The translations under genes and the position numbers were made by a program. From NCBI GenBank assembly GCA_964404515.1, contig CAYOKE010000001.1, forward strand, positions 1 to 63,268: a stretch of DNA of 63,268 nucleotides, in the 5' to 3' direction. The notes below the pieces were generated by a model, which searched no databases, was not told where the DNA came from, and was given only the letters and a program-made list of their open reading frames with translations. Of this stretch, positions 22,530 through 56,381 are shown in pieces. Origin of the DNA: an uncultured Gammaproteobacteria bacterium (GTDB taxonomy: Bacteria; Patescibacteriota; Patescibacteriia; Patescibacteriales; UBA12465). Position 1 is the stretch's first letter; each line of letters begins with the position of its first letter.

Positions 22530-23358
22530 TGTTTTTCAATTTAAAGATATAATAATCGATTGCCGTCCGATAACTGGCCGCCCGACAACTGGCTTTCAAC
22601 CCAGCCCAACCGGCGCGATAGGCGCTAGAAAATATGTTCTTTAAGAAAGTGACCGAAAAATCTGCCGGCAACAAGGCGAGCGGACATCTCAGCCGCCAAC
22701 GAACTGCTAACGGCCAGCCAGGTGCTGAATAATTAAATTTAGCAATCTCCGAAAAAGGTTTCAGATAGGTCGCTGCCTGTAGCTCAGCCCAAGCTAGCTG
22801 TTTTTTCCTAAAAATCTGCTGGGAAAGATTATCATAGTCTGGCTGATGGTTGAGGATGAGAGCAGTTTTCTCGATTGGGCCAGCTAGGTTTAAGGAAAAA
22901 TGCGGTACGCCTAAAAATGATAGACAGCTCTTGCGAAATAGCGCGACCTTAGACGGCCAATGGCTGGAAACAATCTTTTGGCCATCGAATAAGGGCCAAA
23001 GGAAGCTGAAACCGGCCTTAATTTTTTTTCCTGAGACCGGTTCGACGATAAGCCGCGGTAATTCTTTCTTTAGCTCGGGGGATAGGAATTCGTCCGCATC
23101 AATCCTCAATATCCAATCATTGACTGCTAAGGCTAGAGCCATAGGGAAATGGAATTCCATAGCGCCATAATATTCTGCTTCTACCACCCGGGCGCCGCCC
23201 AAAGCGGCGATTTCCAAAGAGCCATCTTGACAAGGGCCATCATGAACTACGATGATTTCCTGGACCACCCCGGCCAAACTACTAAGGCAGCGCGGTAGGA
23301 GTTTCGCTTCGTTTCGGACAATCAGGATGGCAGAAATACTCGGCTGGTCATTTTCCAT
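22522..23358 (-). CDS. Family 2 glycosyltransferase-like protein
   Basis: 278 aa. ISAILIVRNEAKLLPRCLSSL, IIVVHDGPCQDGS, RIDADEF. Confidence 0.7.
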   Translation of the reverse strand: MENDQPSISAILIVRNEAKLLPRCLSSLAGVVQEIIVVHDGPCQDGSLEIAALGGARVVEAEYYGAMEFHFPMALALAVNDWILRIDADEFLSPELKKELPRLIVEPVSGKKIKAGFSFLWPLFDGQKIVSSHWPSKVALFRKSCLSFLGVPHFSLNLAGPIEKTALILNHQPDYDNLSQQIFRKKQLAWAELQAATYLKPFSEIAKFNYSAPGWPLAVRWRLRCPLALLPADFSVTFLKNIFSSAYRAGWAGLKASCRAASYRTAIDYYIFKLKNND

Positions 23359-29104: not shown

Positions 29105-30154
29105 CTACTGCTTGATAAAGAAGGAATTGATCATCAACCCGAAAATATTAGGATAAGCGACGCGATCATCAACGGCCGGGATATAAGAGATGACATAGAT
29201 ATTCTTACGGTCCTGGCCGGTCAGATAAAAATTCAACCCATCTTCGCCCATTACGCCCTCCCAGCCATCGGCGCTCTTGAGTTTATCATAAGTGACGACG
29301 ATATCCGGGAAAGAAGTTTCATACCAACCCAGGATGCTCTGCTTATCAGCGTTGTCCTGGATGGAAATCTGGACCAAAGAGTTATCCGGCGCCGTAAATA
29401 TCATGGTCGTTTCGTTATTTAGGGCTTTAACCGGCCAAGACTTGGGATAGAGGAGTTCATAGCCGTAAACCTTATCCTGATAACGCGCTAAATTCTCATT
29501 AGCTGATAACCGTCCCGAGCCGCTGGGATTATAATTGTTATTCACTTCCACCAAATCTTGGTAGCTGTTGCCGTTGGTATCTGTCGATGAAGCGTTGGTC
29601 CCTAAAGCCGTTTCTTCGTCATCGAAAAGACCGTCCCCGTCGGTATCAAGGAGTGGCGGTAGACTAGAAACGGAGCTAGTAGCCGAAGCCGAGGTGCCTG
29701 GGTTAAGGTCGATAATCTCAATTGGCACGGTTGAAGTGACAACCGATGTCGTGGTGGTTGGGACAATCCCCGACGTCGTCGCTGTCTTGGCCTGGCTAGG
29801 CGGCTGGTTAGAGCTAGCCAGGATATCCGGGGCACTAGTCTTAGCCGCCGGCTTAATAATGAAACGGTAGCTGATATAAACTAAAGAACTAATTACTACC
29901 AAACCTCCAATAATAATCAGCAGCCCGACCGCTTTAAAATTATTCTTGGCCGGAGCTACCATCCCTGATGAGCCGACTGGGGCTTTCACGGCCGCTGGGC
30001 CGGACGCCACAAAACGCGACTGGCTAGGCATATTATGGATTATAATCTCCTGGTCGACTTTGGCGGAATTATCCTGCTCTTTATTCTCCTTATTGTTCTT
30101 CAGTATATTGCGGCGCATAGCGTTAATTGAAAAGCAAGAAGGCAACCAAGGCAA
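29105..30154 (-). CDS. Single-pass membrane protein with an S/T/P-rich stalk, a thrombospondin-type-3-like Ca-binding repeat and a C-terminal globular domain
   Basis: 349-aa ORF (a likelier start is MRRNIL at ~30118). TM GLLIIIGGLVVISSLVYISY, T/S-rich linker, DTDGDGLFDDEE, YNPSGSGRL motif, then a ~140-aa beta-rich domain. Confidence 0.65.
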   Translation of the reverse strand: MPWLPSCFSINAMRRNILKNNKENKEQDNSAKVDQEIIIHNMPSQSRFVASGPAAVKAPVGSSGMVAPAKNNFKAVGLLIIIGGLVVISSLVYISYRFIIKPAAKTSAPDILASSNQPPSQAKTATTSGIVPTTTTSVVTSTVPIEIIDLNPGTSASATSSVSSLPPLLDTDGDGLFDDEETALGTNASSTDTNGNSYQDLVEVNNNYNPSGSGRLSANENLARYQDKVYGYELLYPKSWPVKALNNETTMIFTAPDNSLVQISIQDNADKQSILGWYETSFPDIVVTYDKLKSADGWEGVMGEDGLNFYLTGQDRKNIYVISYIPAVDDRVAYPNIFGLMINSFFIKQ

Positions 30155-30329
30155 ACAAACAGAAAATCAATATGCCCAAAAGCAGCCATTTACGAAAATG
30201 GCTGGTAGAGGTCTGCGGCATGGTATGAAGGCTCAGTGACAGGCGCGGCAAGGATTTGGCATTAGGGAAAAGGTTCGGCCGCGGTCGGGCTTTATTGTTC
30301 TGCGGAGTATTGATCATAAGGGATATTTT

Positions 30330-31058
30330 TTAGCGGTTGCCGGATAATTTCCCTGCCCCATTCGGATTATAACCATTCTTGACTTCAGCGCCGTCTAGAT
30401 AGCCGTCGCCGTCGGAATCGGAATTCAGAGGATTAGTCTGGTAAATCCGCACTTCCTCATAATCATTTAAGCCGTCATGGTCGGTATCAGAGACATTATA
30501 GTTCGTATGATATTCTTTTTGCTCCTCGCTATCGGTCAAACCGTCATTATCCGTATCGACGATCGGTTCGGTAGCAGTTGCTACGACTGTAGTCGTCGCT
30601 AAGGGGACATTAACGCCCGGTATCTCCGGAATCTGACTGGCTGGGCTAGTGGAAGAGGCGGAAAGGCTCGGCTGCTGTTCATTATCATTAGTTTTCACCT
30701 CCGGAGTAGCCGTTGCTTTGGGTTTAGCAACAATATCAGTATTAGTCGCTTTCTTGCCGTTTAGAACCTTGGTGTCAGTCGCAAAGTCGCTAGTGGCCTT
30801 GAAAAACCGTTCATAGACTAGATATCCGACTAGAACCAAAATAACTGCGCCAACAACGATCAGAGTAATTGTCAGCCATTTAGCGCCGCGTTTTTTCTCG
30901 GGCTCTTCTGCAACCAAGTTTTCAGCAGCGGTCAAGCCAACTTTCTTAGCTTCTATCTCCGACGGCGACGAGGGATTATCCTGGGACTTGTCTGTTTCGG
31001 CGAAAATATCGTCTACTGCCGGCCGGCCGGGCTTCTGATTATTCAGATCATTGAACAT
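30330..31058 (-). CDS. Single-pass membrane protein with three thrombospondin-type-3-like Ca-binding repeats
   Basis: 242 aa. TM LTITLIVVGAVILVLVGYLVY, S/T/P linker, DTDNDGLTDSEE, DTDHDGLNDYEE, DSDGDGYLDGAE. Ends GYNPNGAGKL, paralogous to the neighbouring gene. Confidence 0.65.
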   Translation of the reverse strand: MFNDLNNQKPGRPAVDDIFAETDKSQDNPSSPSEIEAKKVGLTAAENLVAEEPEKKRGAKWLTITLIVVGAVILVLVGYLVYERFFKATSDFATDTKVLNGKKATNTDIVAKPKATATPEVKTNDNEQQPSLSASSTSPASQIPEIPGVNVPLATTTVVATATEPIVDTDNDGLTDSEEQKEYHTNYNVSDTDHDGLNDYEEVRIYQTNPLNSDSDGDGYLDGAEVKNGYNPNGAGKLSGNR

Positions 31059-31119
31059 AGATTATGGATTATTAATATTTTAATTATAAACAATCTTCCT
31101 TATCCTGGCCAGACCGGGC

Positions 31120-31446
31120 TTATTTCTGACGCGGGCTAATTGTCTTCAATTGCGCTGCCGGATCAGTGATGATCTCGCTATCATTCTTAATAATCTTATA
31201 AACCGCGGCTTCGCCCTTATCACCCCTGGTCAGGACCTGGATCTTCAATTCGTCAGAAATTCCTAATTGCGCCTTCTCTTCTTGTCCCATAAACTGTGGT
31301 ACATAAGGAGCGGCCGGTTGGTTAGGATTGCCCGGTTGATTATTATCGGTAACCGTCGTCTGGGAGAGCCGCCAAATGATCAAGATGGCGATAGTAATGA
31401 TGAGGATGGCGGCGGAAATGATGATTATGGTCTTTTTATTTCTCAT
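31120..31446 (-). CDS. Small N-terminally anchored protein, unknown function
   Basis: 108-aa ORF with one N-terminal hydrophobic helix (IIIISAAILIITIAILIIW). Confidence 0.45.
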   Translation of the reverse strand: MRNKKTIIIISAAILIITIAILIIWRLSQTTVTDNNQPGNPNQPAAPYVPQFMGQEEKAQLGISDELKIQVLTRGDKGEAAVYKIIKNDSEIITDPAAQLKTISPRQK

Positions 31447-31506
31447 ATTTTTCTCTAATCGAAAATATTTTCTGCAGTGCTAAACCTAAGCGATACAACA
31501 TTGCTA

Positions 31507-34500
31507 TTAATGGTTAATACACTGGCCATTGAAACAGATCTGACCTGGACAGCAATATTCAGCGCCGCATTGATTCGCAGGCTTATTATTACTGCAGAAT
31601 TTATTAGACGCTGGACCACAACAAGTCTGATTCGTATTACAGCAGAGTCCGCCGCAGCAAGTTTCAGTCTCTGCCTTGCAACAAGTGTTGTTATTCGGAT
31701 TCTGCGCCTGACAGACATCAAAATTAATGGGAGCGGAAGGTTCGCCGCAACGGCAAGTATTCCTGGCATAGCACAAACCTTCCAAGCAAACCTCCCCGGT
31801 TTGGCAAGCACAGCCGGTCGTCCCGCCGCAAACCTGACAACCGTTTGGCCCATTACAATTCGTCGTATCAGCTACGCATTCTCCGTTATTATTACAAATC
31901 GGGGTGCTGCCAGAACAAATACAATCATTGGGGCAACTCTGGCAATTCTCGCCGATATTGGCTTGGCAATTTCCGTTACCACAGGAATTTTGGGTCGTAT
32001 CGCCCACACATTCCCCGCTGTCATTACAATCCTGCCCATCTGGGCACAGGCCGCAGGTGCCGCCACAGCCATCAGGGCCGCACTGCTTACCGTCGCAGTT
32101 AGAAGTACAGGTGACGTTAGTCTGAGCGCAATCGTTAGGGCAATTACCCTCCGTTTCGATCACTCCCTGACATATGGTGTCGCCGCAATATCCGCCGCCG
32201 CTTGAGACTGCCTTGAAAATACAATAATTATCAGAAACAATCGGATTCGGTGTGTCTACACCGGGTCCAGTAATGCAACCATATTGTACTTCCGGGCTGC
32301 TATCCGCTGGATTGTCAGTCACTCCGCTATTACCATCACAATCTTCATAACCGTCATTATAGATGCCGCCTCGCCCCTCGCCGTTAGGGGACTGCTTCTG
32401 ACCGTCGCCACAAAAGTCACTTACCTTGAGAGTGAAACTGCGCGTCGTGGAAGCGCCGTATTCATTGGTAGCTTTGATGGAGATGGGAGTGCCGGTCGAA
32501 GAAGCCGTCGGAGTGCCTTTTAGATAGACATGACTAATCACTTCGCCGACCGCACCAGCCGCTCGAGGCTTATAGACGTCGGATAAAGAACGGAAGACGC
32601 CAGCCCAGAAAGAGAGGGAACGCAACGGCCGAGAATTCAAGGTTTGATTTGTGTTATTCGGATCCGTCTGGGTTTCGGAAATTTGGATGCTGAGTCCGGC
32701 CGGCAAGGTGCCGCTGGAATAGCTAAGCGTATGGCTGTCTTGCCCGGTCTGGCCTAAATAACAGGAATAATCTCTATTGAGCCGGGCGGAAGTCGGGCAA
32801 TTGAAATCAAGCTGGGGATTTTCCGGCCGCAAACGGATCCTGAATTTTTTAGTAGAAGAAGAATTGAAGCTATCGGTCACCTTGATGTTATAGATGAAAT
32901 CCGTATCCGAAGGGAATTTATGACTAGCCGGACTGGTCGGGATTGTCCCCTGAAAATTGACCTGATAGCGGTTAATGCCGATTGAACTGAAAGTCTTCGT
33001 TAGAAAAGAACCGGCCAAAAGATCAAACGGGCCGCTGATCTGAGTCAGGGAATAGGCGGCGCTGGGATTACTTATGTTCTTCCCGGAAAAATTGAAGCTG
33101 TAGCCGAAAGGGGTGCCTGGATTAAGTATATATTCGCCGTCTGCAGCCTCGATAAAGAGAGTCGAATTAGTTATTTGGATAGGAGTCGAGGTTGTCAAAA
33201 CCCCGCCCTGTCCGTCAGAGACGGTCAAGGTGGCGTTATAGGTCCCAGCTGGACCGGCTTTCTGGGCATAGATCTTCTTCTGATTCTGGCTATTGGTGTC
33301 TTTGAGCGTCGGCGGCCGGTTATTAGCATTATTATTCTTCCAACCAGTCCAATTAGTCCCATTGGTATTCAAACTCCAAGTTAGGGTATTGCCTTCTTGA
33401 TCAACGACTTTCACGAAACCGTTGAATTCCTGGCCAGCTTCTCCGGTCAATGACTTATCCACGAGGATTGGCGCCGTATTCGAAGCTTGGCCGCTAAAAA
33501 TGATTCCGGTCGCTGTCACGCAATTGGAACTATTCGGGTCATCTTGGTCAAAATGGTAATCCAGCGAAGATTCCCGGCTTTCCATCACTGCACATAAACT
33601 ATAATTTGAACCGTTTGTGTCAGTCTTATAGACCATGGCATAGCTACCGAACGGCAACATCAAGTAGCCCGGTGTCGGATCATAGACGAAACGCTTAGCT
33701 TCTTTATTCCAGCAAGTCTTGAAATCATAGCCCGCGCAATAGCCCAGGCGATTTATCGGATCAGAGAAACTCTTAGCAACCGCCAAGTCGGATAATAGAT
33801 TGTCCGTCCAGCTTGGCCAAACGGAAACCGTATGGTTAGCCAGATAAGAACCAGCTGCCAGCAAGGGGTAGCGACCATTAGCACTCTTGAACGAGAAAAG
33901 AGCTTCCTTAAGTTCGGCCAACTTGCCAAGCCGCTTCAGATCGCGAGTAATCTTGGCTTTCACGCTATTACAAAAGAAATTATTCGGGCAGTCGGAATCC
34001 GTCAAACAATTCTTCGGATTCTTCAAGAGGCAGGAGCTGGAAGCGACCGTTGACGTAGCACAAACCTGACCGCTGCCGCAATCGGAATCGCTATTGCAAC
34101 TTACAGAGGAGATGGCGCAAGTCGGAGACGGGTTGGTATTTTCTCGGAGATTAGTATTGAACTTCCAATGGGAAACGAGTTGGCCGAGGATATCGGCTGT
34201 CTTAGCAGCTGAATCCTGGTTATATGATATCAGATAGATATTGGTATATATCTTATCGTCTTCAGGGTCGACGTTAGCGGCATTAACATAGACTGTCCGG
34301 CCATCCCGAACCGCCTCATAGCCATCGACGGTGAGGGTCTGCGGCGAACCAATAAATCCTTGACTCTCATACCAACGATGAATGCTGTAATGGTTGGGGT
34401 TAGGTAGGACCCGGACGCCGATAGCGTCATTTGCCGTTTCGGCCCGGGTGACGGAAAAGCCGATAACTATAAAAAATACAACCAATATGCATGAGATTGA

Positions 34501-34527
34501 GACCAAAAACTGTTTATTTTTTTTCAT
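31507..34527 (-). CDS. Giant secreted cysteine-rich protein (about 1006 aa) with a pilin-like globular domain, Ig-like domains and a C-terminal cysteine-knot-like repeat array
   Basis: I prefer the start MKKNKQFLVSISCILVVFFIVIGFSVTRAETA (signal peptide, ATG at 34525-34527); the ORF track extends to 34587. Pseudopilin-like segment TRDLKRLGKLAELKEALFSFKSANGRYP. He_PIG-like Ig motif (LPAGLSI, YLKGTPTASSTGTPISIKATNEYG). CGDG...EDCDG and repeated CGxGxCxxxxExCxxCPNDC modules. The last ~300 aa contain roughly 70 Cys. Confidence 0.8.
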   Translation of the reverse strand: MKKNKQFLVSISCILVVFFIVIGFSVTRAETANDAIGVRVLPNPNHYSIHRWYESQGFIGSPQTLTVDGYEAVRDGRTVYVNAANVDPEDDKIYTNIYLISYNQDSAAKTADILGQLVSHWKFNTNLRENTNPSPTCAISSVSCNSDSDCGSGQVCATSTVASSSCLLKNPKNCLTDSDCPNNFFCNSVKAKITRDLKRLGKLAELKEALFSFKSANGRYPLLAAGSYLANHTVSVWPSWTDNLLSDLAVAKSFSDPINRLGYCAGYDFKTCWNKEAKRFVYDPTPGYLMLPFGSYAMVYKTDTNGSNYSLCAVMESRESSLDYHFDQDDPNSSNCVTATGIIFSGQASNTAPILVDKSLTGEAGQEFNGFVKVVDQEGNTLTWSLNTNGTNWTGWKNNNANNRPPTLKDTNSQNQKKIYAQKAGPAGTYNATLTVSDGQGGVLTTSTPIQITNSTLFIEAADGEYILNPGTPFGYSFNFSGKNISNPSAAYSLTQISGPFDLLAGSFLTKTFSSIGINRYQVNFQGTIPTSPASHKFPSDTDFIYNIKVTDSFNSSSTKKFRIRLRPENPQLDFNCPTSARLNRDYSCYLGQTGQDSHTLSYSSGTLPAGLSIQISETQTDPNNTNQTLNSRPLRSLSFWAGVFRSLSDVYKPRAAGAVGEVISHVYLKGTPTASSTGTPISIKATNEYGASTTRSFTLKVSDFCGDGQKQSPNGEGRGGIYNDGYEDCDGNSGVTDNPADSSPEVQYGCITGPGVDTPNPIVSDNYCIFKAVSSGGGYCGDTICQGVIETEGNCPNDCAQTNVTCTSNCDGKQCGPDGCGGTCGLCPDGQDCNDSGECVGDTTQNSCGNGNCQANIGENCQSCPNDCICSGSTPICNNNGECVADTTNCNGPNGCQVCGGTTGCACQTGEVCLEGLCYARNTCRCGEPSAPINFDVCQAQNPNNNTCCKAETETCCGGLCCNTNQTCCGPASNKFCSNNKPANQCGAEYCCPGQICFNGQCINH

Positions 34528-37500
34528 ATTTATTAGCATTGGGGATTCGGTCATTGCTTGGGATAGGACTCTCGTTTTTATTAGCATTGGGGATTCGGTA
34601 ATTGCTTGGGATATTGATGATTATCTCGCCACTCTTAGGGCTCTCGTTAGCAGAGGCATCGAGAGCGGTCAGGGAGAAATAGTTATTGCCAAACGGCAAC
34701 TCATCAAATCCTAGGGTCAGGCTGGTTCCTTGGCTAGTCGAATCGAACGACTGACCGTATTGCTTAGAGTTGATACCGTGATACAGACGATAGAATATGG
34801 TGTCGTCGGAATTAGCATCCCAGCTGAACTCGACGGTCGAGGAAGCGATAATCTGTGCCTCGATGCCGGTCGGAGTGGCCGGCGAGGTCTTATCGGTCGG
34901 CTTAGCCGTTTTTTCGTTTGACAGCTGGCTTTCCGTCTTATTAATAGAGACTACCGACACCTTGAAGATATAGGAAATATTGTTAGTCAAATTGTTAATT
35001 GTCGTCTGACAATCATAGACGTTTCCCGTTAGGCTGCAGGCGTCAGCCGGAGTGACTTCCTTGACCGACATCGTGCCTTGACCGGACTTCAGATAGTAAA
35101 CCCTATAACTCCCGACTTGGTCGGAATTGGAACGCCAGTTGACTTGGACTTCGCCGCTAGTCTGTCGATCGGTCGCCGCCGTAATCTCTCCGCCCGGTAA
35201 GACAGCCTCCCGGAAAAAATATGCCTCCTTCAGGACGCTCCAAAGACAGAGGCCATCCGGGTTGCCATTACCATCTTTATCCGGCCCGCAAAGGCTGTTT
35301 AAGGTAGAGCATGGAGTTTTATCAGCACTGCAAATTAATGAGCTACTCTGCCCCCTGATGACCGCTGAATTTATTATCGCTGGTAGATCGTCTAGGGTAT
35401 TAGCATTGCCATAGTCACGGCAATAGTAGAACTTGTAATTATAATTCGCACAGGGGTCGCCACCAACGCCTTGGCAGGTATCTTTCCAGGGCGACCAAGC
35501 TCCGTTGCTGGCTACCGGCGGCCAAGGATTATTGCAGATGAAGACAAAGAGATCGGAAACGGCTGGCAAATCGTTACCAGTCGAATAGACATTGCAGCAG
35601 TTGTTGGAGCAGTTATTGGCGTCACAGACGCAATTCACGCTGCTATCGCAGGAAGTCAGGAAACGCCCCATATCGACAGTCGCTGTTAATTTGGTTTCAC
35701 TATCGGTTACTCCGTTCTGGGCGGTAGCGAAGGTGCGATTCGGCCCCAAACCGTTAATAGACCCGATAGAGACGATGCTGGGGTCGTTCACTTGCCAATC
35801 CCAATCCCAATAATACCCGGTAACCGGCCGGAGGGCCTGGCCATCGGCGCTATAGGCCCAAACGGAGAAAACCTTATCCTTATCAGCTTTCGTATCAAAA
35901 GTCTTGTTATTCACATCCGTATCGTTTTCGTCCAGGGAATTATCCGTTGTCTTGAAGAGATAGGAATCGGGGTTGGTGGCCACATGGTCTATAGCGCAGA
36001 CTCCGCCATTCGGGCCTTGGTCCGACAAGGTAGTAAATTTAATAATCTGGGAATTTTGATAAGATCGGTTATTGAACTTTATCATGCTTCCCGAGACATA
36101 AGAATTAATGGTTTTGTCAAAATAGCCCTTACCATTAAAGCCGATACCAGCCAAACTCAAGATGCCAGACTGGCTATTTAGGTTCTCGTCGCCAAGAACA
36201 ATCATGTAATAATTAGTAGCCGGGGATAATAATTTAATAGGCGCGAATATCAATTTAGTAAAACTACCGTTTTCTTCCCCGCTAATTGACCCAGGGATAG
36301 CGCAATATAACTTTTTCGGATCAGTTATCTTCGCGACCGCTCGATCAGAAAAAATTGTAGTCAATCCGCGCCAGATTGTCTTTATTTTCTGGCTAAGGCG
36401 GGCCAATACCCCTCGATCCTGGGCTGCTAATAATTCCTGCAGTGCCCCGCTATCCGTGATAAAGGTACCGGCCGGGCAGACGCCGTTGCCATAATCGCGT
36501 TCTTCCAGTAACAAGGCATTACTAATGAGGCTAGTGACATCCATATTCTGGGTAAAGCTGACCTGGATAACCGCATTACGGCAGACATCCTCGGCTAAAT
36601 GGGCGGGTGAAGTCGAAGCAATCTCTGGCCGCGCCTGGCAACAGGTATCCGTTCCGCAACCGATGGTTTTTGGATGCCCACAATCTCTATCTTTCTCACA
36701 ACCGCAGCACAACCCGCGGCCAGCGCCGCTGCAATTACCTCGATCCGCCTGGCAATACAAAGTCGGCGTTTCCTGCGTGAAACAAGAATCCGGTTTCTGG
36801 CCTGGCTGGCAACAGCATGCTCCGCAATCTGGGTAAAAACCTAACGTGCCCGTAGCAGTCAAGCAGCTGAACTTCCCCAGGTTGCAAACACTAAGATTAC
36901 AGCTGGAAGTAGCTGTCCTACTGCTGCAATCCAGGCCGGCGCCGCCTTCTTCATTCGCACAACGGAAGGCACAGGTCGAAGTACTAATAAAGCGGCCGGT
37001 CGTCGTCGCGTTTAAATCACACAATTTAGGATCATCTTCACGGCAATCGTAATAAGCGCAATAGCCGGCGTTCGATCCGTTTTCAATCTTAGCACCGCTC
37101 TTACAAGTGTTGGTATTCTTGTCGAAACAGCAGACAGTTTCTGCCGAACAAGCGGTCTGGTTGCCATTGAAAGTAGAACAATAATCACCACCCGGGTTAT
37201 TGGCGCAACCGGTCGTGCATTCGTCTATACCACCATATAACCCTAACTTCAAGGGGGTAGAGGTAGCGCATAGTGTCAAATCAGCGCCCTGGCAGTCATA
37301 ATAAGCACAGTAGCCATAATCAGTGGAGTTATTTTGGTTATTGCTGACTAGGCGGCCATCGCCGCCGCGACAGATATCGTCAGTAGTAGTAGCGGTATGT
37401 TTGGCGTCGATGCAGCAGACTGAACTATGGCCGGCACAATTGTCAAAACTAGTCAGATTAGAACAATCCGTGCAAATCCCTTCAGGATGAGCATCGCTGA

Positions 37501-40500
37501 TATCGCAATATTTACCACTATGACCGGTGCAGTTACAGGCGGCATCATGCGCTTCTTGACTAGTTCCCACCAAACCACAGCCGGAACAATTGCCATAAGT
37601 ATTGCTGGAATTAGAATAGCCAGCCGGGCAAGTCGTAACCGGGATGGAAGGATATTTGATAATAACTATCCCTGGTTGTGCTCCGTTACCAGTCTTTTCG
37701 GTCTGGCCGCTCGCGCCACCGCCCGGATTATTATAGCCCGCGCCGCCGCTGCCAGGAATAACAGAAGAGTTTCCTCCTCCGCCGCCGCCATAAGCAATGC
37801 TAGTACCAGTAATATCAGAATAAGTTCCATCGCCGCCGTTACCCCCTCTATCGTTGCTCCGGGCATCAAAGCCTTTCTGGCTATCTCCGCCACCGCCGCC
37901 GGAGGCAAAACCATTATTTTTATACCTTATGCCGCCAGCTTTACCTGAACCACTCATGCCGCCAGTGCCCGGTGAGACCGCCTTTTTGCCTCCAAAGGCA
38001 GTAACCGATTGGAATGAAGAATTGCGGCCGTCAGTATTAAAAGGCCAAATTTTACTTTTGCTTACACCACCACTACCGACGACAACCGGAATGTTGCCAA
38101 CCTGGATCGTCATTGATTTCTCTATTACTTCGCCGCCGCCACCGCCCGCATCATAGACTCCGTTGGATTCTCTGCCGCCCGCGCCGCCACCGCCCGCGCC
38201 GCCACCGCCGCCGACCACCAAGACATCCGCATTTACCGGGGCAGTCACCTTCAACACGCCGGAATTTCGGAAAGTATGTATGCAATTACCACCAATTTCA
38301 GCTACAATCCCGCCCGTTGCCGAGCAGCTGGGATTGATGCAATTCCCCGCGCCATCGCAGCAAATGCCAACGCTACCATTGCTTCCGGCCAAGTCCGAAC
38401 CGCAACGCCCGGTGCATTTCAAGCCGGCGCAACAATCTTCTTGATCATGGCCAATACGGCAACAGCAGTCGCAAGATGGTTCAACCTCGACGATACATTT
38501 ATCACCAACGCATTTGGCGCCAGTCTGCGCACAAAGCTTATCGGACACGCAGTAGCCAAGAGAATTAATCTCTGCACAGGTAAAATCGCCAGAACATATA
38601 TCGCAGTGGGAATTATTTTCGACACAACGGTCATTAGGCATCCTAGTCCAGCCAGTCGGACAGGATCCATTAATCGTTATCTCCCACTGACTATTACTAT
38701 TGCAAACTTTCTGGACTGAATATTCCCCGAGGTTGATTGTCTCGGGCAAATCGCAGTTACCGTTCACACATTTATCAATCGCCTGGTTATAGGTGCAGGA
38801 CGAAATTGTACAACCCGGGACTGTCTGACAGGTAGAATCGCAATTTCCGACTATTTTATCGTACTTCTGAGAAGCCGAAGAGCAGGCACCAGGGCTATTG
38901 GGGCATAGCGCGCCCTGATAGCAGGAACCGAGATATTTAGACATGCCGGCGCAGCTTAAAAAATTGGTGCTCGTGCCGAAGCCGGTGCTGAAACTCCATT
39001 CAAAGACCGAGGTCGGCACGTCGATGAAGCAATCTTCTAGGGTGTCGACGCAACGGCCGTGTTTATAGGTAGCAGCCGGGCAGCAGACTTGCGTACCGCA
39101 ATCAGCATCGGCCGTACAGCTGCCGACTTCGAAATTTAATTCATTGCCCCATTCATTATCTTTTACCACTCGGACCGGACCGGAGATTGCTCCGGCCGGC
39201 ACAACCGTCTTAGTTTGGTCAGCTCGGCCATCCTTAGCAATCGTCCCGGTTGCCGACTGTTCATAATTAAATTTGATTAAGCCTTCTTCTCCGACCTTAC
39301 CGAAATATTCCCCCCAAAGAGTAACCGGGGTCGCAATCGGACCACGGACGGGATTAATCTTGCAGAGACTAGTCTTCAAGGCCAGGTTCTTATCGGCCTG
39401 AAAAGTATTAGGATTCAGCTTCTGCGTATCGATCGCGACCGGCCCCAAGTTGATCTTAATCACATACTTCCCGTCGGCCAAGCCGGCCGGGACCTTGACA
39501 ACAATCTGATTGTTCTTCCAGACTGAATTCAAACAAATTTCCGGAAAATCATAAGCGGCTTCTGTGTCGCCGAAGTAGACATGAGAAGAGCCGCGCGTAT
39601 TGCCGAAACCGTTGCCCGTGATAGTCACATATTGGCCGGCACTTCCTTTGGTCGGGCTGAATGAGAAGATATATGGGCTTTCGCCCGGTTCCTGATCTTT
39701 GGTGAATTTCAAATAATTACTTTTTTCTTTATTGCCGCTGATATTATTAACGACAAAGCTACTGGAATCTCCGGACTTGATATTAGGCGTAGTCGAAGTG
39801 CCAGACAAGCCGGAGGGAGTATTAAATTGCGAATCCAGGCCGCGAACGTTGCTCTCATAATTCCCAAAGTAAGCGTCGCTCGAATAAAGATTAACGCCCT
39901 GATAGCCGATTTCGGAGTTTAGAACCCCTCGGTTCGGGTCGATATAACATAAGCCGGGGCGTACGATGGAGTTTGCCTCAAAATCATCAATCTTCGGGCC
40001 ATAATCATCATCGGTCTGATCGCTCAGGTTATCTTTATTGACCACTTTCAACGGCCCGGTCGTTATATCGCTCGGGACAGCGATGACAATCTGAGTATTG
40101 GTCCAGGAGCTAATACAGGCCGGGTTCAGTTCCTTAGGGTCTCTTCCTAATTGGGAATTGCTGCCCGAGCCGACAAACACCACTTGACTGCTGGTTGGCG
40201 AATATTCTCCAAAATTCTTACCGAAAATCGTAATTAGATTATCCGTCGCACCATTAGGCGCAGAAAAATTACAGGCCGTCTGGCAGTCGCTATCCTTAGT
40301 ACAAGATTTATCCGTATTTTCCTGGCAAAAGCCGCCGACCGGGCTGACTTCCGTAATAACCGGCAAACCGAAACAAGTACAAGTACCAGAATCACAGGTC
40401 AAGTATTTAGCGCAGCGGCTGTCATCCGGTTCACAAGTCTCGCTAGAAGAACTACATGGATCGCCGATTTCGCCTAGTGGTTTGCAACCGCAGTCTTCCC

Positions 40501-41074
40501 TGTCACAATAATCAGTATCGTCGCACATCTGCAGCACGGCTTGGCAACCAGACAATTCGTTACCATCGCAACTAGTCTGGCCACAATTGGTGCAGCCGCC
40601 GCAATCCGAACCTTCGCAAGAACCCCAGGAACCGCCTAAGCAAGTCATGACACCATAACAACCGCAAGATTTAGTCTCACCGTCGATGCAGCCATTGCCG
40701 CCATTTATCGCGTTCCCTAATTTATCAAAGATGAAGATGGTAATCGCCCAAGCCGACAGAATAATTACTAAGCCAATAACACCGTTCCTGAGTTGCATCT
40801 TAGCCTTAGCTATCTTATCCTCATCGCCGCCGGAAAGCATCCATGAATATCCACTCCAGAGGATGATTACTATAGCAACCAAGCCCAAGACTCCGAGAAA
40901 GACATTGATTATCCGTCCGACTACGGTCCGAACATCGGTCGTCGTTAGAGAATTAGCCAGGCCGTTATTCACTGCTTCGGTTCCAAAATCCTGGGCTAAG
41001 GCTAAGCGCGCCAAAAACAGGCCGCCGAGAAGGAGGCTAAAAACAACCAAGTACTTGATGATTCTTTTGGACAC
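34514..41074 (-). CDS. Giant (2186 aa) surface protein: VirB2/TrbC-like pilin hairpin, then Cys-rich modules, 3 IPT/TIG-like domains, a glycine-rich domain, an Ig-like domain and 2 FN3-like domains
   Basis: GTG start. aa 1-122: signal peptide (ALAQ/D) plus two TM helices separated by SGGDEDKIAKAK. IPT-like: PVITEVSP...ITIFGKNFG, PYIFSFSPTKGSAGQYVTITGNGFG, INPVRGPIATPVTLWGEYFG. Gly-rich: VLVVGGGGGAGGGGAGG...GIVIIKYP (aa ~926-1142). C-terminal FN3-like: GEVQVNWRSNSDQVGSYRVYY and PTGIEAQIIASSTVEFSWDANSDDTIFYRLYHG. Well over 100 Cys. Confidence 0.85.
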   Translation of the reverse strand: MSKRIIKYLVVFSLLLGGLFLARLALAQDFGTEAVNNGLANSLTTTDVRTVVGRIINVFLGVLGLVAIVIILWSGYSWMLSGGDEDKIAKAKMQLRNGVIGLVIILSAWAITIFIFDKLGNAINGGNGCIDGETKSCGCYGVMTCLGGSWGSCEGSDCGGCTNCGQTSCDGNELSGCQAVLQMCDDTDYCDREDCGCKPLGEIGDPCSSSSETCEPDDSRCAKYLTCDSGTCTCFGLPVITEVSPVGGFCQENTDKSCTKDSDCQTACNFSAPNGATDNLITIFGKNFGEYSPTSSQVVFVGSGSNSQLGRDPKELNPACISSWTNTQIVIAVPSDITTGPLKVVNKDNLSDQTDDDYGPKIDDFEANSIVRPGLCYIDPNRGVLNSEIGYQGVNLYSSDAYFGNYESNVRGLDSQFNTPSGLSGTSTTPNIKSGDSSSFVVNNISGNKEKSNYLKFTKDQEPGESPYIFSFSPTKGSAGQYVTITGNGFGNTRGSSHVYFGDTEAAYDFPEICLNSVWKNNQIVVKVPAGLADGKYVIKINLGPVAIDTQKLNPNTFQADKNLALKTSLCKINPVRGPIATPVTLWGEYFGKVGEEGLIKFNYEQSATGTIAKDGRADQTKTVVPAGAISGPVRVVKDNEWGNELNFEVGSCTADADCGTQVCCPAATYKHGRCVDTLEDCFIDVPTSVFEWSFSTGFGTSTNFLSCAGMSKYLGSCYQGALCPNSPGACSSASQKYDKIVGNCDSTCQTVPGCTISSCTYNQAIDKCVNGNCDLPETINLGEYSVQKVCNSNSQWEITINGSCPTGWTRMPNDRCVENNSHCDICSGDFTCAEINSLGYCVSDKLCAQTGAKCVGDKCIVEVEPSCDCCCRIGHDQEDCCAGLKCTGRCGSDLAGSNGSVGICCDGAGNCINPSCSATGGIVAEIGGNCIHTFRNSGVLKVTAPVNADVLVVGGGGGAGGGGAGGRESNGVYDAGGGGGEVIEKSMTIQVGNIPVVVGSGGVSKSKIWPFNTDGRNSSFQSVTAFGGKKAVSPGTGGMSGSGKAGGIRYKNNGFASGGGGGDSQKGFDARSNDRGGNGGDGTYSDITGTSIAYGGGGGGNSSVIPGSGGAGYNNPGGGASGQTEKTGNGAQPGIVIIKYPSIPVTTCPAGYSNSSNTYGNCSGCGLVGTSQEAHDAACNCTGHSGKYCDISDAHPEGICTDCSNLTSFDNCAGHSSVCCIDAKHTATTTDDICRGGDGRLVSNNQNNSTDYGYCAYYDCQGADLTLCATSTPLKLGLYGGIDECTTGCANNPGGDYCSTFNGNQTACSAETVCCFDKNTNTCKSGAKIENGSNAGYCAYYDCREDDPKLCDLNATTTGRFISTSTCAFRCANEEGGAGLDCSSRTATSSCNLSVCNLGKFSCLTATGTLGFYPDCGACCCQPGQKPDSCFTQETPTLYCQADRGNCSGAGRGLCCGCEKDRDCGHPKTIGCGTDTCCQARPEIASTSPAHLAEDVCRNAVIQVSFTQNMDVTSLISNALLLEERDYGNGVCPAGTFITDSGALQELLAAQDRGVLARLSQKIKTIWRGLTTIFSDRAVAKITDPKKLYCAIPGSISGEENGSFTKLIFAPIKLLSPATNYYMIVLGDENLNSQSGILSLAGIGFNGKGYFDKTINSYVSGSMIKFNNRSYQNSQIIKFTTLSDQGPNGGVCAIDHVATNPDSYLFKTTDNSLDENDTDVNNKTFDTKADKDKVFSVWAYSADGQALRPVTGYYWDWDWQVNDPSIVSIGSINGLGPNRTFATAQNGVTDSETKLTATVDMGRFLTSCDSSVNCVCDANNCSNNCCNVYSTGNDLPAVSDLFVFICNNPWPPVASNGAWSPWKDTCQGVGGDPCANYNYKFYYCRDYGNANTLDDLPAIINSAVIRGQSSSLICSADKTPCSTLNSLCGPDKDGNGNPDGLCLWSVLKEAYFFREAVLPGGEITAATDRQTSGEVQVNWRSNSDQVGSYRVYYLKSGQGTMSVKEVTPADACSLTGNVYDCQTTINNLTNNISYIFKVSVVSINKTESQLSNEKTAKPTDKTSPATPTGIEAQIIASSTVEFSWDANSDDTIFYRLYHGINSKQYGQSFDSTSQGTSLTLGFDELPFGNNYFSLTALDASANESPKSGEIIINIPSNYRIPNANKNESPIPSNDRIPNANKYEKK
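34529..34613. repeat. 37-nt direct repeat in two copies with a 48-nt period, at the 3' end of the 2186-aa gene and 5' leader of the next gene
   Basis: 34529-34565 versus 34577-34613 are identical at 36/37 positions. On the minus strand they encode the duplicated peptide PSN(Y/D)RIPNANK. Confidence 0.9.
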
Positions 41075-41090
41075 AAAAAATCAAGATTAA

Positions 41091-43760
41091 TTATTTGCAA
41101 TTACCATCCGCCCCTAAAGTGCTGGTAGCTGTGCCAAAACAGCAGGACGGATTATCGGCTGTCGCCGCGCAATTAGGCGCTACGCTCGGCTTATAGCAAT
41201 TCTGATAGATATCCTTGACCCCAGAACCAACCTGGGCCTTATAGGTGACAGATTGGGAAAAATTACTATGAAATATCCGGGTAATCGTCGTATCTGGTTC
41301 GCCATCCAGGGGAGACGAATCTAGGTTCTCACTCAGGATCCAATATCCTAATGGCGACGGGGAAGCGCTGCGCAAGTTGACTAGCTTATGCTCGAAAGTG
41401 CTGGTTCCGCTCTGGACCAAGGTACTGCCAGTCCTAAGGGTACTATTCATCATCAAGGCGTTGAAATTAATCTGAACCTCATCCGCCAAAGCAACTTCTG
41501 TCTGACCCTGGGAAATATTGACAAAGGTGATTTGCGGCGGATCGATAGCAATCTTATCATTTATATAGAAAGACCATTTATACTTATCTTTCTTATCTAT
41601 ATTCTGTGTCGGCGGCAGGTTATCGTTATAGAAATCTATCGGCCCGTCGGCGTAGATATCTCGATCACCATCCAGAGAGTTAATAGCGGCATCGACGATA
41701 CCGTCCAAGTTGGTCAGGTTAGCCGTCGGGTAATTCTTATTCTGCTCGTTCTGGCAAGTCTTATGCTCCAAAGGCGAAGAAGAGCAGGTCCGGAAAGGAT
41801 TATAAGAAATACAGTCGTTATCAGTATCACAGGTTTTTAAATCCGCTGCCACCAGTTCGACTGACAAATGGCTATTAGCCGGCAAGCAGTAAATTTTTTC
41901 ACCGCAGCCGTTCATGCCGCATTCCTGGTCAGAAATGAATTCGACCGTCTTGTAACCGTTAGAAATCATGAACTTCCCGCCTAAGTAATTACCGACGCAA
42001 GCATTGCTCTGACATTTGTACGAACGACAATCTTCGTTTTCATTACAATAGGTGCTAGCCGGGGAGCTGGAGGCATCGGCATTAACGACCTGAATATAGC
42101 TCGCTACTTCGCTAGCTAGGCCGGAAACGGTTACCGGATTAATCGCTTCATTAAAATTAATCTGAATAACGGAATTCATCGGCCGATCCTTCCTATCCTT
42201 AACTTGACTGCTTTCCTGACGATTTACCCCACCAGAAAACGGTTTGATTGCCAAGGCTTGGTTGTTGTTAGTTGCGAGGACGATATTATTACCTGTTTCC
42301 CCAGCAACTTTAGCAGTCAAAAACACTGAGTTATTCTTGCGATCGACGTCTATCTGTTCATGGCCGCTCAATTTCGCTTCGATATTGGCCGCTTGGATGT
42401 TACTGTCGCATGCCCCAGACGGAACGGCGATATTATTGTTAGCTGAAGAAGTGGCGAAGGTATAGATCACCGACCCAATTGTTAGGGTATCAGCTAGCTG
42501 TTCTGGCTTCAGAGCGATTGTCCATAGGCTCCCAACTTGATGATCAGTTGCCTTGAAGGTGAAATAGCCGGTGAAAACAGCAACACCGTTGCTGTCAAAG
42601 TCGGCTATACCCAACAAAGCATCATTGCCATCGAATAATTGGGCCTTATCAGTCGCCGGGACAGCGACTTTGAACTTATTTATCGTTCCATAGTAGCTAA
42701 GGGTTATTTCTGGTCCGGCAGGAACGATAGAGACGACTTCAGCCGGCGAATAGGTCTGAGGACAAGAATTGACAGTAATCGTTCCCTTAGCCGCAATCGC
42801 CGATGTCACTTCTCTGTAGACATCTTTTTCGTTGTCAGGCGTCGGAAAGATCTGCCCGGCTACAGTCTGCGGCGGCGCTAAATCGAAACTAGTATTAACC
42901 AAGAATTTCCATTCTACATAGTTGTTATTGCAGGTAGCAAACATGGAAGTGCCGTCCAATTTCTTGAGCTGGTTAGTAAAACGGACGGAATACCAGGTAT
43001 TTTCAACTTGGGAACCGAGGGGATCGACCGGCGTCAGGACTAGAGTTTTGCCACCACCCGCCACGTTCACCAAAATATTGGTAATATTAGAATTAGGGTC
43101 AGGGCAACTGCCGTTCTTACAGGCGTCGCCTAGTTCTGTCTTATAAATCCTGATTGCCATAGGATTCACCTTATTGCAAGCCGTCTGGTTGCAGCCGCAG
43201 GCTTCGCCTTGATCGTCGACGCAAGCCGATTCTAAATCTATCTGCTCCTTGAAAGTTACCATTATCGAAGTGTTGCGCGGGACGTCCTTCTGGTTATCAG
43301 TCGGGTAATAGTCGTCAATCGTACAGGCGCCAATCGCCCCAGTCCCAGCATTGGTGAAACCGCCGCCGCCAAAATTTCCGCCATTACCATTAATGGCGCC
43401 GGCCAACTTGGTTAGCAAGAAAGTGACTATCGCCCAAGAACAGACGATGATAAGTAGACCGATAGCCGCATTCTTTAGGATATTTCTAGCCCGACCGATC
43501 TTTTCTTCGTCGCCACCGGAAGTCATCCACACGAATCCGGCATAAATTACTAGGATGACAGCAATCGCTCCTAATAATGACAAAACGATCTGGATAATCC
43601 GGCCGATTATGATACGCGGGTCGGTAGAGGTCAAAGAATTAGCTAGACCATTGCTGACCTCCTCTAAACCAAAATTGGCCTGGGCTAAAGCAAAATCAGC
43701 CACTCCGAACATTATCAAGAGGCTGAAAACTAGGATGATTAATTTAACTTTTTTAGACAT
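41091..43760 (-). CDS. Large (889 aa) surface protein: VirB2/TrbC-like pilin hairpin fused to Ig-like (SbsA/Big-type) domains and a Cys-containing ectodomain
   Basis: aa 1-125 are about 55% identical to the N-terminus of the 2186-aa protein (GLANSLT.TD, GRII, SGGDE(D/E)KI, SWAI). They are followed by a G-rich linker and Ig-like segments (YYPTDNQKDVPRNTSIMVTFKEQID; RPMNSVIQINFNEAINPVTV). Confidence 0.8.
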   Translation of the reverse strand: MSKKVKLIILVFSLLIMFGVADFALAQANFGLEEVSNGLANSLTSTDPRIIIGRIIQIVLSLLGAIAVILVIYAGFVWMTSGGDEEKIGRARNILKNAAIGLLIIVCSWAIVTFLLTKLAGAINGNGGNFGGGGFTNAGTGAIGACTIDDYYPTDNQKDVPRNTSIMVTFKEQIDLESACVDDQGEACGCNQTACNKVNPMAIRIYKTELGDACKNGSCPDPNSNITNILVNVAGGGKTLVLTPVDPLGSQVENTWYSVRFTNQLKKLDGTSMFATCNNNYVEWKFLVNTSFDLAPPQTVAGQIFPTPDNEKDVYREVTSAIAAKGTITVNSCPQTYSPAEVVSIVPAGPEITLSYYGTINKFKVAVPATDKAQLFDGNDALLGIADFDSNGVAVFTGYFTFKATDHQVGSLWTIALKPEQLADTLTIGSVIYTFATSSANNNIAVPSGACDSNIQAANIEAKLSGHEQIDVDRKNNSVFLTAKVAGETGNNIVLATNNNQALAIKPFSGGVNRQESSQVKDRKDRPMNSVIQINFNEAINPVTVSGLASEVASYIQVVNADASSSPASTYCNENEDCRSYKCQSNACVGNYLGGKFMISNGYKTVEFISDQECGMNGCGEKIYCLPANSHLSVELVAADLKTCDTDNDCISYNPFRTCSSSPLEHKTCQNEQNKNYPTANLTNLDGIVDAAINSLDGDRDIYADGPIDFYNDNLPPTQNIDKKDKYKWSFYINDKIAIDPPQITFVNISQGQTEVALADEVQINFNALMMNSTLRTGSTLVQSGTSTFEHKLVNLRSASPSPLGYWILSENLDSSPLDGEPDTTITRIFHSNFSQSVTYKAQVGSGVKDIYQNCYKPSVAPNCAATADNPSCCFGTATSTLGADGNCK

Positions 43761-54879: not shown

Positions 54880-55161
54880 ATGGCCGAGATAAAATACAAG
54901 ATTACGCCGCTCGTCTGGTTAGTCAAGGATGAGGCGAGCGTTAAATTCCATGTTAAGAGCGACGACTATTTCGGTACGATGGCGACGATCCTGAGCCTAG
55001 CCAGACAGCAGATAAAAAAAGCTGGCCGGTTGGATTCGACCACTTTTAAAATCATAAATAATCTCGAAACTGATTTGTCTTTCCTACAGAAAAATTATCA
55101 GATCAAACCCAGGGCGAAAAACAGGAACAGGACGCCAAAAGGCAAGCTGAAAAGCCAATGA
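54880..55161 (+). CDS. Hypothetical protein
   Basis: 93-aa ORF 4 nt after radC with a basic C-terminus. Its 3' end overlaps the convergent gene by 64 nt. No motif recognised. Confidence 0.35.
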   Translation: MAEIKYKITPLVWLVKDEASVKFHVKSDDYFGTMATILSLARQQIKKAGRLDSTTFKIINNLETDLSFLQKNYQIKPRAKNRNRTPKGKLKSQ

Positions 55162-56381
55162 TCAAAAAGCATCAATACCACCAAGACTCCTATGACCGCC
55201 AGCGAGAACGTCTCCTGACGGTCTTTTTTAGCTAAGAAGAAGAGGAATCCCAAAAAACAAAGGAGGGAGATGAGGCCGGCTTGTGCCCAGAGAACTAAAA
55301 AAGCATTATGAACCGGCTGGTAGGCATAGCCAGGCTGGCCCGGCTCAGCTTTCTCCAGAGTGACCGTATAATTATTCAAGCCGACTCCGAATAACCATTT
55401 TTTCTTAATCATTTCCTGGGCGTCAACCAAATATTCTTGTCGCTCAGAAATCGATTTCTGTTCTAGGCGGCCTTCAGCTGATACCCGAGTACAAGCTAAT
55501 TCGCGATAGGGGATAACGACCAAAATGAGCAGAAGGGCGGAAAAGAAGATGACCGCTAGATGGCGCCCTAAAACCCAACGGTCTTCCTTAAGAGCTAAGC
55601 TGATTAATAAAACCAGGCTGCCGATGGCGTAAGCCAGCCAGGCAGCGCGGGAGAAGGTAAAAAACAAAGCGAACAAGGCGAAAAAATAGAAGACGAACAG
55701 GAACAAGGAACTCATGAGCTCCTTGGTCGAATTGATGACCTTCTTCTTGGCCAGCATATAGGCGGCTAAGATCAAGGCGATGGCCAAAACGCCGCCAAAG
55801 ATATTGGGGTGGTCGAAACCACCATAGGCCCGGAGCCAACGGCCGGAAAGCGTTTCTACAACAGCCGTTCCTAAAGTTAAGGGGTCATGTACCGCTAACC
55901 CCAGATACTTGTTAGCAAAAGAACTCTGGCTCAAAAATTGGTAGATGCCCAAGATTGACTGCAGGAACATACTGGCCAGGAAGGCATGCAGGATCCCAAT
56001 CTTGCTGAAACAACTGTCTTCATAATTCTCTTTGCTCGTTCCAGCCCTTAGAAGATAAAACATCCCTAAAGCCGCTAACACGACTAAGTAGCCATAGAAG
56101 GCCAGGACCTTATCCGATGCGAAGAAGAAAGAAAATAAAGTGAATAATTCGAAACCAGCCAAAAAATACCAGACATTGGAAAGCTTCCCGCTGAGACTGC
56201 GGGTATTAACCTTATAAAAAACAAAGAGGAAAAAAACTAGGAGTAGGACCAACTGGCTGACATAGAGGCTTATTTCTTGAAAATTATTAAGGCCGGGCCG
56301 TAAAATCAGCTTCGTCTGCCAAGGCAGCAGGAAGACTATGAGATAGATCGAGCAACTGACGATTTTATTGAGAATTTTCAT
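55098..56381 (-). CDS. O-antigen-ligase-like (Wzy_C-type) polytopic membrane protein
   Basis: 427 aa with about 11 TM helices. Motifs TFSRAAWLAYAIGSLVLL and PVHNAFLVLWAQAGLISLL. Confidence 0.7.
   Translation of the reverse strand: MKILNKIVSCSIYLIVFLLPWQTKLILRPGLNNFQEISLYVSQLVLLLVFFLFVFYKVNTRSLSGKLSNVWYFLAGFELFTLFSFFFASDKVLAFYGYLVVLAALGMFYLLRAGTSKENYEDSCFSKIGILHAFLASMFLQSILGIYQFLSQSSFANKYLGLAVHDPLTLGTAVVETLSGRWLRAYGGFDHPNIFGGVLAIALILAAYMLAKKKVINSTKELMSSLFLFVFYFFALFALFFTFSRAAWLAYAIGSLVLLISLALKEDRWVLGRHLAVIFFSALLLILVVIPYRELACTRVSAEGRLEQKSISERQEYLVDAQEMIKKKWLFGVGLNNYTVTLEKAEPGQPGYAYQPVHNAFLVLWAQAGLISLLCFLGFLFFLAKKDRQETFSLAVIGVLVVLMLFDHWLFSLPFGVLFLFFALGLI

Follow-up and report, generated by a model that had tools for sequence, protein, structure and literature searches.

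What is the hairpin of a type IV secretion system (T4SS) pilin doing at the head of two very large proteins? The question is raised by two adjacent genes in a 63,268-nt stretch of DNA (contig CAYOKE010000001.1, positions 1 to 63,268, assembly GCA_964404515.1), here called the window, from an ultra-small, Falkowbacteria-like Patescibacterium of the class ABY1. Both genes lie on the minus strand, separated by 16 nt. The first, read as an open reading frame (ORF) with an ATG start, encodes an 889-aa "medium" protein (41091..43760) comprising a PF18895 hairpin and a Big_5/Ig-like ectodomain, and the second encodes a 2186-aa "giant" protein (34514..41074) whose GTG is the first start codon after an in-frame TGA. 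The first-pass annotation of this DNA had likened the N-termini of both proteins to the conjugative pilins VirB2 and TrbC. The analysis presented here leads to the view that the two genes are probably a co-transcribed pair encoding surface adhesins or envelope proteins that are anchored by a pilin hairpin.

The N-termini are paralogous. Residues 1-125 of the medium and giant proteins are 51% identical, with 76% positives (BLASTP E 2e-36), which bears out the kinship first proposed, at an identity somewhat below the approximately 55% then given. In both proteins, the module consists of a basic N-terminus, a hydrophobic core, an ALA|Q site, an amphipathic stretch, a first transmembrane segment (TM1), a charged loop and a second transmembrane segment (TM2). 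The motifs LALAQ or FALAQ, GLANSLT(T/S)TD, GRII and SGGDE(D/E)KI had been read correctly in both; the TM2 motif SWAI, also described as common to the pair, is exact only in the 889-aa protein and appears as AWAI in the 2186-aa protein. Chance similarity or a gene-calling artefact was rejected on the strength of the E value and of more than 100 conserved orthologues. A hidden Markov model of the module gave no further copy when all six frames of the window were searched.

The module can be laid out residue by residue, all features of the two genes being on the minus strand. In the 889-aa protein, residues 1-26 (43683..43760) form a predicted Sec-type signal peptide ending in FALA|Q, with a basic N-region, a hydrophobic core at 7-25 and an AxA site, and residues 27-118 (43407..43682) make up the putative mature pilin hairpin, with an amphipathic segment, TM1 at 55-73, the loop SGGDEEKIGRARNILKN and TM2 at 98-116. 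The 2186-aa protein is organized likewise: a signal peptide as read from the sequence, ending in LALA|Q (residues 1-27; 40994..41074), precedes a putative mature hairpin (residues 28-118; 40721..40993) in which TM1 (55-73) and TM2 (98-116) flank the loop SGGDEDKIAKAKMQLRN. Hydropathy analysis recovered exactly three hydrophobic segments per protein, namely the signal peptide, TM1 and TM2, and none in the remaining 770 residues of the medium protein or 2070 residues of the giant. The loop carries four lysine or arginine residues versus one in the mature outer N-segment, and the tails contain even numbers of cysteines (26 in the 889-aa protein and 132 in the 2186-aa protein); both observations fit a topology in which the two ends of the hairpin are outside and the extracellular domains are disulfide-bonded. 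The AlphaFold2 (AF2) model of the 125-aa hairpin has helices at 48-80 and 85-124, with a predicted local distance difference test (pLDDT) score of 69. The large domains are placed outside the cell by prediction, as the first-pass annotation had supposed.

Other routes of export and anchoring were considered. A type IV pilus pilin was rejected because a Sec-type signal with an AxA site is followed by two TM helices and no class III motif is present, none (G|F/M...E) having been found in the first 40 residues of either protein. A lipoprotein was rejected for want of a lipobox, and a sortase substrate for want of an LPXTG-like motif anywhere in either protein; the C-termini read ...ADGNCK and ...NANKYEKK.

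A disordered Gly/Asn linker connects the module with the tails, which are Cys-rich strings of Ig-like, TIG and fn3 domains. In the 889-aa protein, the linker (residues 119-145; 43326..43406) is recognizable by its composition and by pLDDT below 50 at residues 122-136, and it leads into a beta-rich ectodomain (residues 146-889; 41094..43325) with a Pfam match to Big_5 (61.5 bits). The AF2 model of this protein, built from 118 orthologues, has a mean pLDDT of 85.8 and shows the helical hairpin, the disordered linker and an all-beta ectodomain, the last scoring 80-97 in most 10-residue blocks and 66-71 at the C-terminus. Structural neighbours of the ectodomain found by Foldseek include S-layer proteins, alpha2-macroglobulin MG domains, cadherins and CopC-like Ig folds. 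The much longer ectodomain of the 2186-aa protein (residues 130-2186; 34517..40687) contains TIG, glycine-rich (Gly_rich_2), Big_5 and fn3 modules.

Is the hairpin a pilin, or simply a pair of helices? Its membership in the VirB2-like pilin family, as originally suggested, is upheld by PF18895 (T4SS_pilin), which scores 45.5 bits in the 2186-aa protein and 41.1 bits in the 889-aa protein against a cut-off of 26.6. Like the stand-alone pilins of this family, the two hairpins pair an above-threshold match with the same order of signal peptide, amphipathic stretch, TM1, loop and TM2, keep every residue that is invariant in those pilins, and are encoded by adjacent paralogous genes. Unlike them, the two proteins carry 760-2060 extra residues after TM2, the known stand-alone pilins being 110-160 aa in length, and the pair lies outside any T4SS gene cluster. 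The relationship to Mbov_0395/MMCAP2_0565 (NF045849), a pilin-like family named for conjugation of a mycoplasma integrative and conjugative element (ICE), is looser. The hairpin aligns to 71 of the 80 model positions, with 35.3 bits (E 6.8e-9) for the 2186-aa protein and 30.0 bits (E 3.2e-7) for the 889-aa protein; these scores fall under the equivalog cut-off of 40 bits, and both proteins are related to the family rather than members of it. The Mycoplasma protein, moreover, is only about 80 aa long and part of an ICE. Mycoplasmas are wall-less, single-membrane bacteria.

The link to the classical TrbC/VirB2 family is more distant. The 2186-aa protein reaches 26.9 bits (E 5.6e-6) with PF04956, one bit under the cut-off of 27.9, and the 889-aa protein has no match to this model; precomputed PF04956 matches exist in three of the listed orthologues of the 889-aa protein, and a weak one in an orthologue of the 2186-aa protein from a sister contig. 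Profile-profile comparison, which the first-pass annotation had looked to for a connection with TrbC/VirB2, did recover one. The reference set comprised eight annotated VirB2/TrbC genes from plasmids of mating-pair formation type T (MPF-T), each located between virB1 and virB3. With hhalign, an 11-sequence hairpin profile matched this set at a probability of 70% (E 4e-5) and a 238-sequence profile at 66.7% (E 5.4e-5), the latter over 60 columns spanning TM1, loop and TM2; overall, the matches cover 40-60 columns. The controls comprised a reversed template (0.9%), twenty column-shuffled templates (no more than 0.4%) and AtpE, the ATP synthase subunit c (0.1%). Since all of them failed, the link between the hairpin and VirB2 appears remote but specific, and the result supports remote homology to VirB2/TrbC, not membership of PF04956. 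Agrobacterium VirB2 and its relatives resemble the two proteins in having a signal peptide followed by a two-helix hairpin and in a common "TDP...G...WM" register; they differ in that the loop of the present hairpins is some seven residues longer, that a huge ectodomain follows, and that no VirB1, B3 or B4 genes adjoin the pair. The organism also has a single membrane (PMC12857230), a further difference from the Gram-negative MPF-T systems.

The first-pass annotation had described this architecture in two proteins. It is not peculiar to them but widespread and conserved, and NCBI records already name some orthologues "pilin". For the 889-aa protein there are at least 179 clusters of full-length orthologues; the 120 orthologues listed are 816-925 aa long (most 870-925 aa) and 49-82% identical, and all have PF18895 plus Big_5. 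Where a source name is given, as for a few of them, it is "pilin" or "Ig-like domain-containing protein", and the sources are Candidatus Falkowbacteria or Patescibacteria. Across 118 of these orthologues, column identity is 0.73-0.79 in TM1-loop-TM2, 0.65 in the ectodomain and 0.50 in the signal peptide. The next gene, for a Cys-rich protein of about 1006 aa, provides an internal control: its plain signal peptide is just 26% identical between orthologues. On the best-supported reading, the hairpin is a genuine member of the VirB2-like family, and its sequence is under a constraint stronger than a simple anchor should need.

Synteny is kept as well. Three sister contigs, namely a 911-kb contig, a 32-kb Logan contig and the complete Falkowbacteria genome CP066698.1, have the same gene order: a divergent RelA/SpoT gene comes first, then the medium and giant genes, and then genes whose products are a secreted Cys-rich protein (about 1000-1200 aa), a TM protein (about 110 aa) and a protein with TSP3 repeats. 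Syntenic orthologues of the 2186-aa protein span 1548-2262 aa. In CP066698.1 (locus L007, 10001-18409), the hairpins of the giant pair are 78% identical to each other versus 50-59% to their orthologues in the window, which suggests local gene conversion; in six other genomes, such convergence is small.

An exhaustive profile search of 1.84 billion representative proteins found the hairpin in 62,875, of which the best 150 were analysed. Sixty-seven of these have a single hairpin, and the other 83 have 2-17 hairpins in one polypeptide. Among the former, 16 measure 387-3656 aa and start with the hairpin at their very N-terminus, followed by a Cys-rich tail without a further membrane-spanning segment, although one has a hydrophobic stretch at its C-terminus. 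Six of these 16 were scanned; all six matched PF18895, and five also had TIG, Big_5 or fn3 domains. The hairpin is found at the C-terminus of proteins of 296-501 aa, too. The tandem concatemers of PF18895 hairpins are noteworthy in their own right (for example, P0136, with 4 hairpins in 427 aa, and P0150, with 17 matched stretches in 1775 aa). In four concatemers that were read, the units after the first have no signal peptide, so they look like real "poly-pilins" and not merged gene calls.

A genome scan limited to one genome per species gave 80 loci of two main kinds. The first kind is the adjacent medium and giant pair, present in about 40 further genome loci from Falkowbacteria, Magasanikbacteria and unclassified relatives. 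In Falkowbacteria, the two proteins measure about 890 and 1550-2260 aa; elsewhere, they measure about 540-780 and 2260-2820 aa, the few informative titles being Magasanikbacteria or Falkowbacteria. The second kind is the short-pilin array, typically six adjacent genes for proteins of about 110-190 aa (most 125-160 aa), usually with one extra hairpin gene 2.5-7.5 kb upstream; some Magasanikbacteria-type loci have 9-14 hairpin genes in place of the six-gene array. The short stand-alone copies of the hairpin that the first-pass annotation had proposed to look for thus exist, in sister genomes. As a separate observation, a solute-binding-protein gene (SBP_bac_1, about 458-471 aa) is located directly upstream of a hairpin gene in three ABY1 pilin loci (L001, 3659-5474; L038, 1632-3442; L078, 4130-7051), and in L078 the product of that hairpin gene is 501 aa long, the hairpin forming its C-terminal end.

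The giant pair and a short-pilin array of six adjacent genes, with a seventh about 4.5 kb upstream, occur together in nine genomes (OW818634.1 is one, with loci L021 and L038). The first pilin of the array (s1, 126 aa) is 57-62% identical to the hairpins of the giant pair in the two genomes compared, versus 23-52% for all other pairs of short pilins in those genomes; in the wider comparison with first pilins of short arrays, the range is 47-62%. Furthermore, s1 ends exactly where the linker of the long proteins starts. A test of concerted evolution between s1 and the hairpins of the pair gave a small, non-significant within-genome excess (0.64 versus 0.59 and 0.73 versus 0.67; n=6).

These observations suggest how the two proteins may work. 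Export would follow the Sec route, and signal peptidase I would cleave each protein behind ALA, leaving a VirB2-type pilin hairpin (PF18895) as the new N-terminal part. This hairpin would span the cytoplasmic membrane in such a way that both of its ends are outside and the basic loop is inside. From there, the floppy Gly/Asn linker would lead to the Ig-like, TIG and fn3 domains, a long chain rich in disulfides that would project from the cell. The hairpin would be the sole membrane-anchoring element and, being the same module as s1, would most likely dock the ectodomains onto an assembly of short pilins, whether a membrane oligomer or a filament. A likely role would be to make contact with a host cell or a substrate, or to build up the envelope of a cell that lives as an epibiont.

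Several points weigh against this reading. Surface display is a prediction, and so is the topology behind it, for which hydropathy and the positive-inside rule are the sole basis. For an adhesin specific to a host, the 889-aa protein varies unusually little in length and sequence. Structure comparison cannot tell this pilin from any other helical hairpin: in the PDB, the 125-aa hairpin model had no Foldseek match at E 1e-3 or below and drew nothing but generic helical hairpins, the ATP synthase c subunit among them, and a sequence-profile search of the PDB with the hairpin returned no pilin, only chance matches to KcsA with E above 3. Finally, there is no T4SS core gene within about 20 kb of the pair in the window, nor within 8-10 kb in any sister locus, so the link to a secretion or pilus machine is by homology only. 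The first-pass annotation had reported no VirB4, VirB6 or VirB8-10 genes in the window, and a scan of its 36 larger ORFs likewise found none of these domains. No VirB4-sized ORF was present in the 13 of 80 related loci inspected (11 short-pilin-array loci and two others), and the pair is unlinked to T4SS genes in all genomes examined.

The window does contain one gene of a T4SS-related class, as an observation apart from the pair. At 12632..14428 (minus strand), a 598-aa VirD4/TraD-like P-loop ATPase (TrwB_AAD_bind, TraG-D_C) is encoded that has no clear TM segment and ends in a CxxC-x17-CxxC zinc finger; its gene overlaps by 4 nt with that of an RNase T-like exonuclease (12057..12635). It fits the class of type IV coupling proteins far from virB4, which is described as abundant (PMC12102498).

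VirB2-like pilins are themselves widespread in Patescibacteria, often in arrays of 2-11 genes (PMC12102498), and the T4SSs of this group are unusual among Gram-positive-type systems in having pilins (PMC12102498, PMC10633639, PMC12857230). It is tempting to go one step further than membrane anchoring and to suppose that a VirB4-type T4SS extracts the hairpins from the membrane and builds them into a VirB2-like pilus whose main constituents are short pilins such as s1, with the ectodomains outside or at the tip, in the role of VirB5 or PrgB adhesins, which Patescibacteria lack. This is a tentative possibility, and the one that holds up best beside anchored adhesins or envelope proteins. The retention of all invariant pilin residues, the closeness to s1 of the same genome and the joint presence of short pilins and giant fusions in nine genomes speak for it, and natural poly-hairpin proteins indicate that the module tolerates a C-terminal extension. 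In conjugative pili, the two termini of VirB2 and TraA are on the outer face, and F-pilin displays peptides that are fused to its C-terminus. One genome that bears the pair, GCA_000999715.1 (LCGL01000001.1, locus L029), belongs to the Falkowbacteria for which VirB4 has been reported and has both VirB4 and TrsD (PMC12102498, Tables S1 and S3), and no PrgB-like adhesins were detected in Patescibacteria (PMC12102498). By analogy, the long proteins may be, like the Gram-negative pilus-tip protein VirB5 or the LPXTG adhesins of the PrgB type, a large or exposed cell-contact protein of a type IV system; they have no sequence similarity to either in Pfam or NCBIfam, lack LPXTG, and appear to be anchored by a pilin hairpin instead. 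On the other side, the published work (PMC12102498, PMC10633639, PMC12857230) demonstrates no pilus assembled from PF18895 proteins, the ABY1 genomes examined have no virB4 close to either the giant pairs or the short arrays, the lattice would have to make room for an appendage of 2,060 aa on a subunit, which is sterically demanding, and the within-genome excess of similarity between s1 and the hairpins is not significant.

A broader version of this idea is slightly more doubtful. In it, ABY1 Patescibacteria would assemble a filament or membrane platform of the VirB2 type, some of whose subunits carry fused ectodomains of 0.7-2.8 thousand residues in place of separate T4SS tip adhesins, and the conserved pair would be the host-contact end of an apparatus that episymbionts need.

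The proteins could also be components of an S-layer-like coat, with the hairpin as a mere stable two-helix anchor and no specific host-binding or pilus role. The Foldseek matches of the 889-aa model at E 1e-3 or below include an in-situ S-layer protein (7ptp), with a weaker match to Bacillus anthracis Sap, and the near-fixed length of the 889-aa protein and the 49-82% identity among its orthologues suit a structural component, as does its fixed housekeeping neighbourhood with a secreted Cys-rich protein and calcium-binding TSP3 proteins. A mere anchor, however, is not expected to be the best-conserved part of the protein, nor to keep the signature residues of the pilin family, and the length of the giant partner varies from 1548 to about 2820 aa, which is more typical of an exposed, adaptive protein; this explanation is considered unlikely. 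C-terminal processing of TrbC/VirB2 is established, and by analogy the ectodomain might be cut off at the Gly/Asn linker, giving a soluble secreted protein plus an s1-like pilin of normal size; this is very improbable, for while s1 ends exactly at the start of the linker and a disordered linker should be accessible, no protease gene is conserved beside the pair (the nearby S26 signal peptidase is a housekeeping gene), no conserved cleavage motif stands out in the linker, where the 118-orthologue consensus is mostly undetermined, and s1 itself is already encoded in the genomes.

Anchored adhesins or envelope proteins thus remain the probable identity of the pair, and its surroundings are those of an ordinary chromosome. 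The window encodes FtsZ/FtsA, NrdD, SecDF, ClpP, HisRS, GyrA, an UvrD/PD-(D/E)XK (AddA-type) helicase-nuclease and a prepilin peptidase, and the neighbours of the pair are RelA/SpoT, HisRS, the signal peptidase, RuvB and other surface proteins, not a virB/trb operon. The third gene of the block (31507..34527, minus strand) encodes the secreted Cys-rich protein of about 1006 aa, which has a cleavable signal peptide, no hairpin, a probable true start at MKKNKQ, Ig-like modules and 62 cysteines beyond its N-terminal 125 residues. It is followed on the same strand by genes for a conserved 108-aa protein with an N-terminal TM segment (31120..31446), syntenic with a gene for 109-117 aa in the three sister contigs, and for a 242-aa TM-anchored protein with TSP3 calcium-binding repeats (30330..31058; TSP3_bac, E 1e-17), also syntenic there, whose TM segment is internal. 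The downstream block (29105..34527) also includes a 349-aa protein with an internal TM segment, no Pfam match and a TSP3-like DTDGDG motif. A scan for promoters and terminators between 29 and 44 kb found sites no more frequent than in shuffled sequence. Elsewhere in the window (21091..25729, and 55098..56381 on the minus strand), a type IV prepilin peptidase gene lies beside glycosyltransferase genes, and two Wzy_C (O-antigen-ligase-like) membrane proteins are encoded, one as a fusion with TPR repeats; these envelope functions have no connection with the hairpin.

Neither the module nor its family is new. The giant C-terminal fusions, of which no description was found in the literature, their conserved pairing and their kinship to s1 appear undescribed. 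For GCA_000999715.1, the published survey lists a single VirB2 entry, not near virB4 (PMC12102498, Table S3), and so appears to have missed the giant pair that this genome carries; judging from this one genome, counts of "pilins" and models of the T4SS in Patescibacteria may be incomplete. That the hairpin occurs alone, with N- or C-terminal extensions and in tandem suggests a general display module. An essential role of VirB2-like pilins in host-dependent growth was recently reported for a cultivated Patescibacterium, Southlakia epibionticum ML1, which has a six-gene pilin array (PMC10633639; PMC12857230). The fused class, in which a pilin module carries a very large Ig-like ectodomain, provides concrete, testable candidates for the contact end of such a pilin apparatus.

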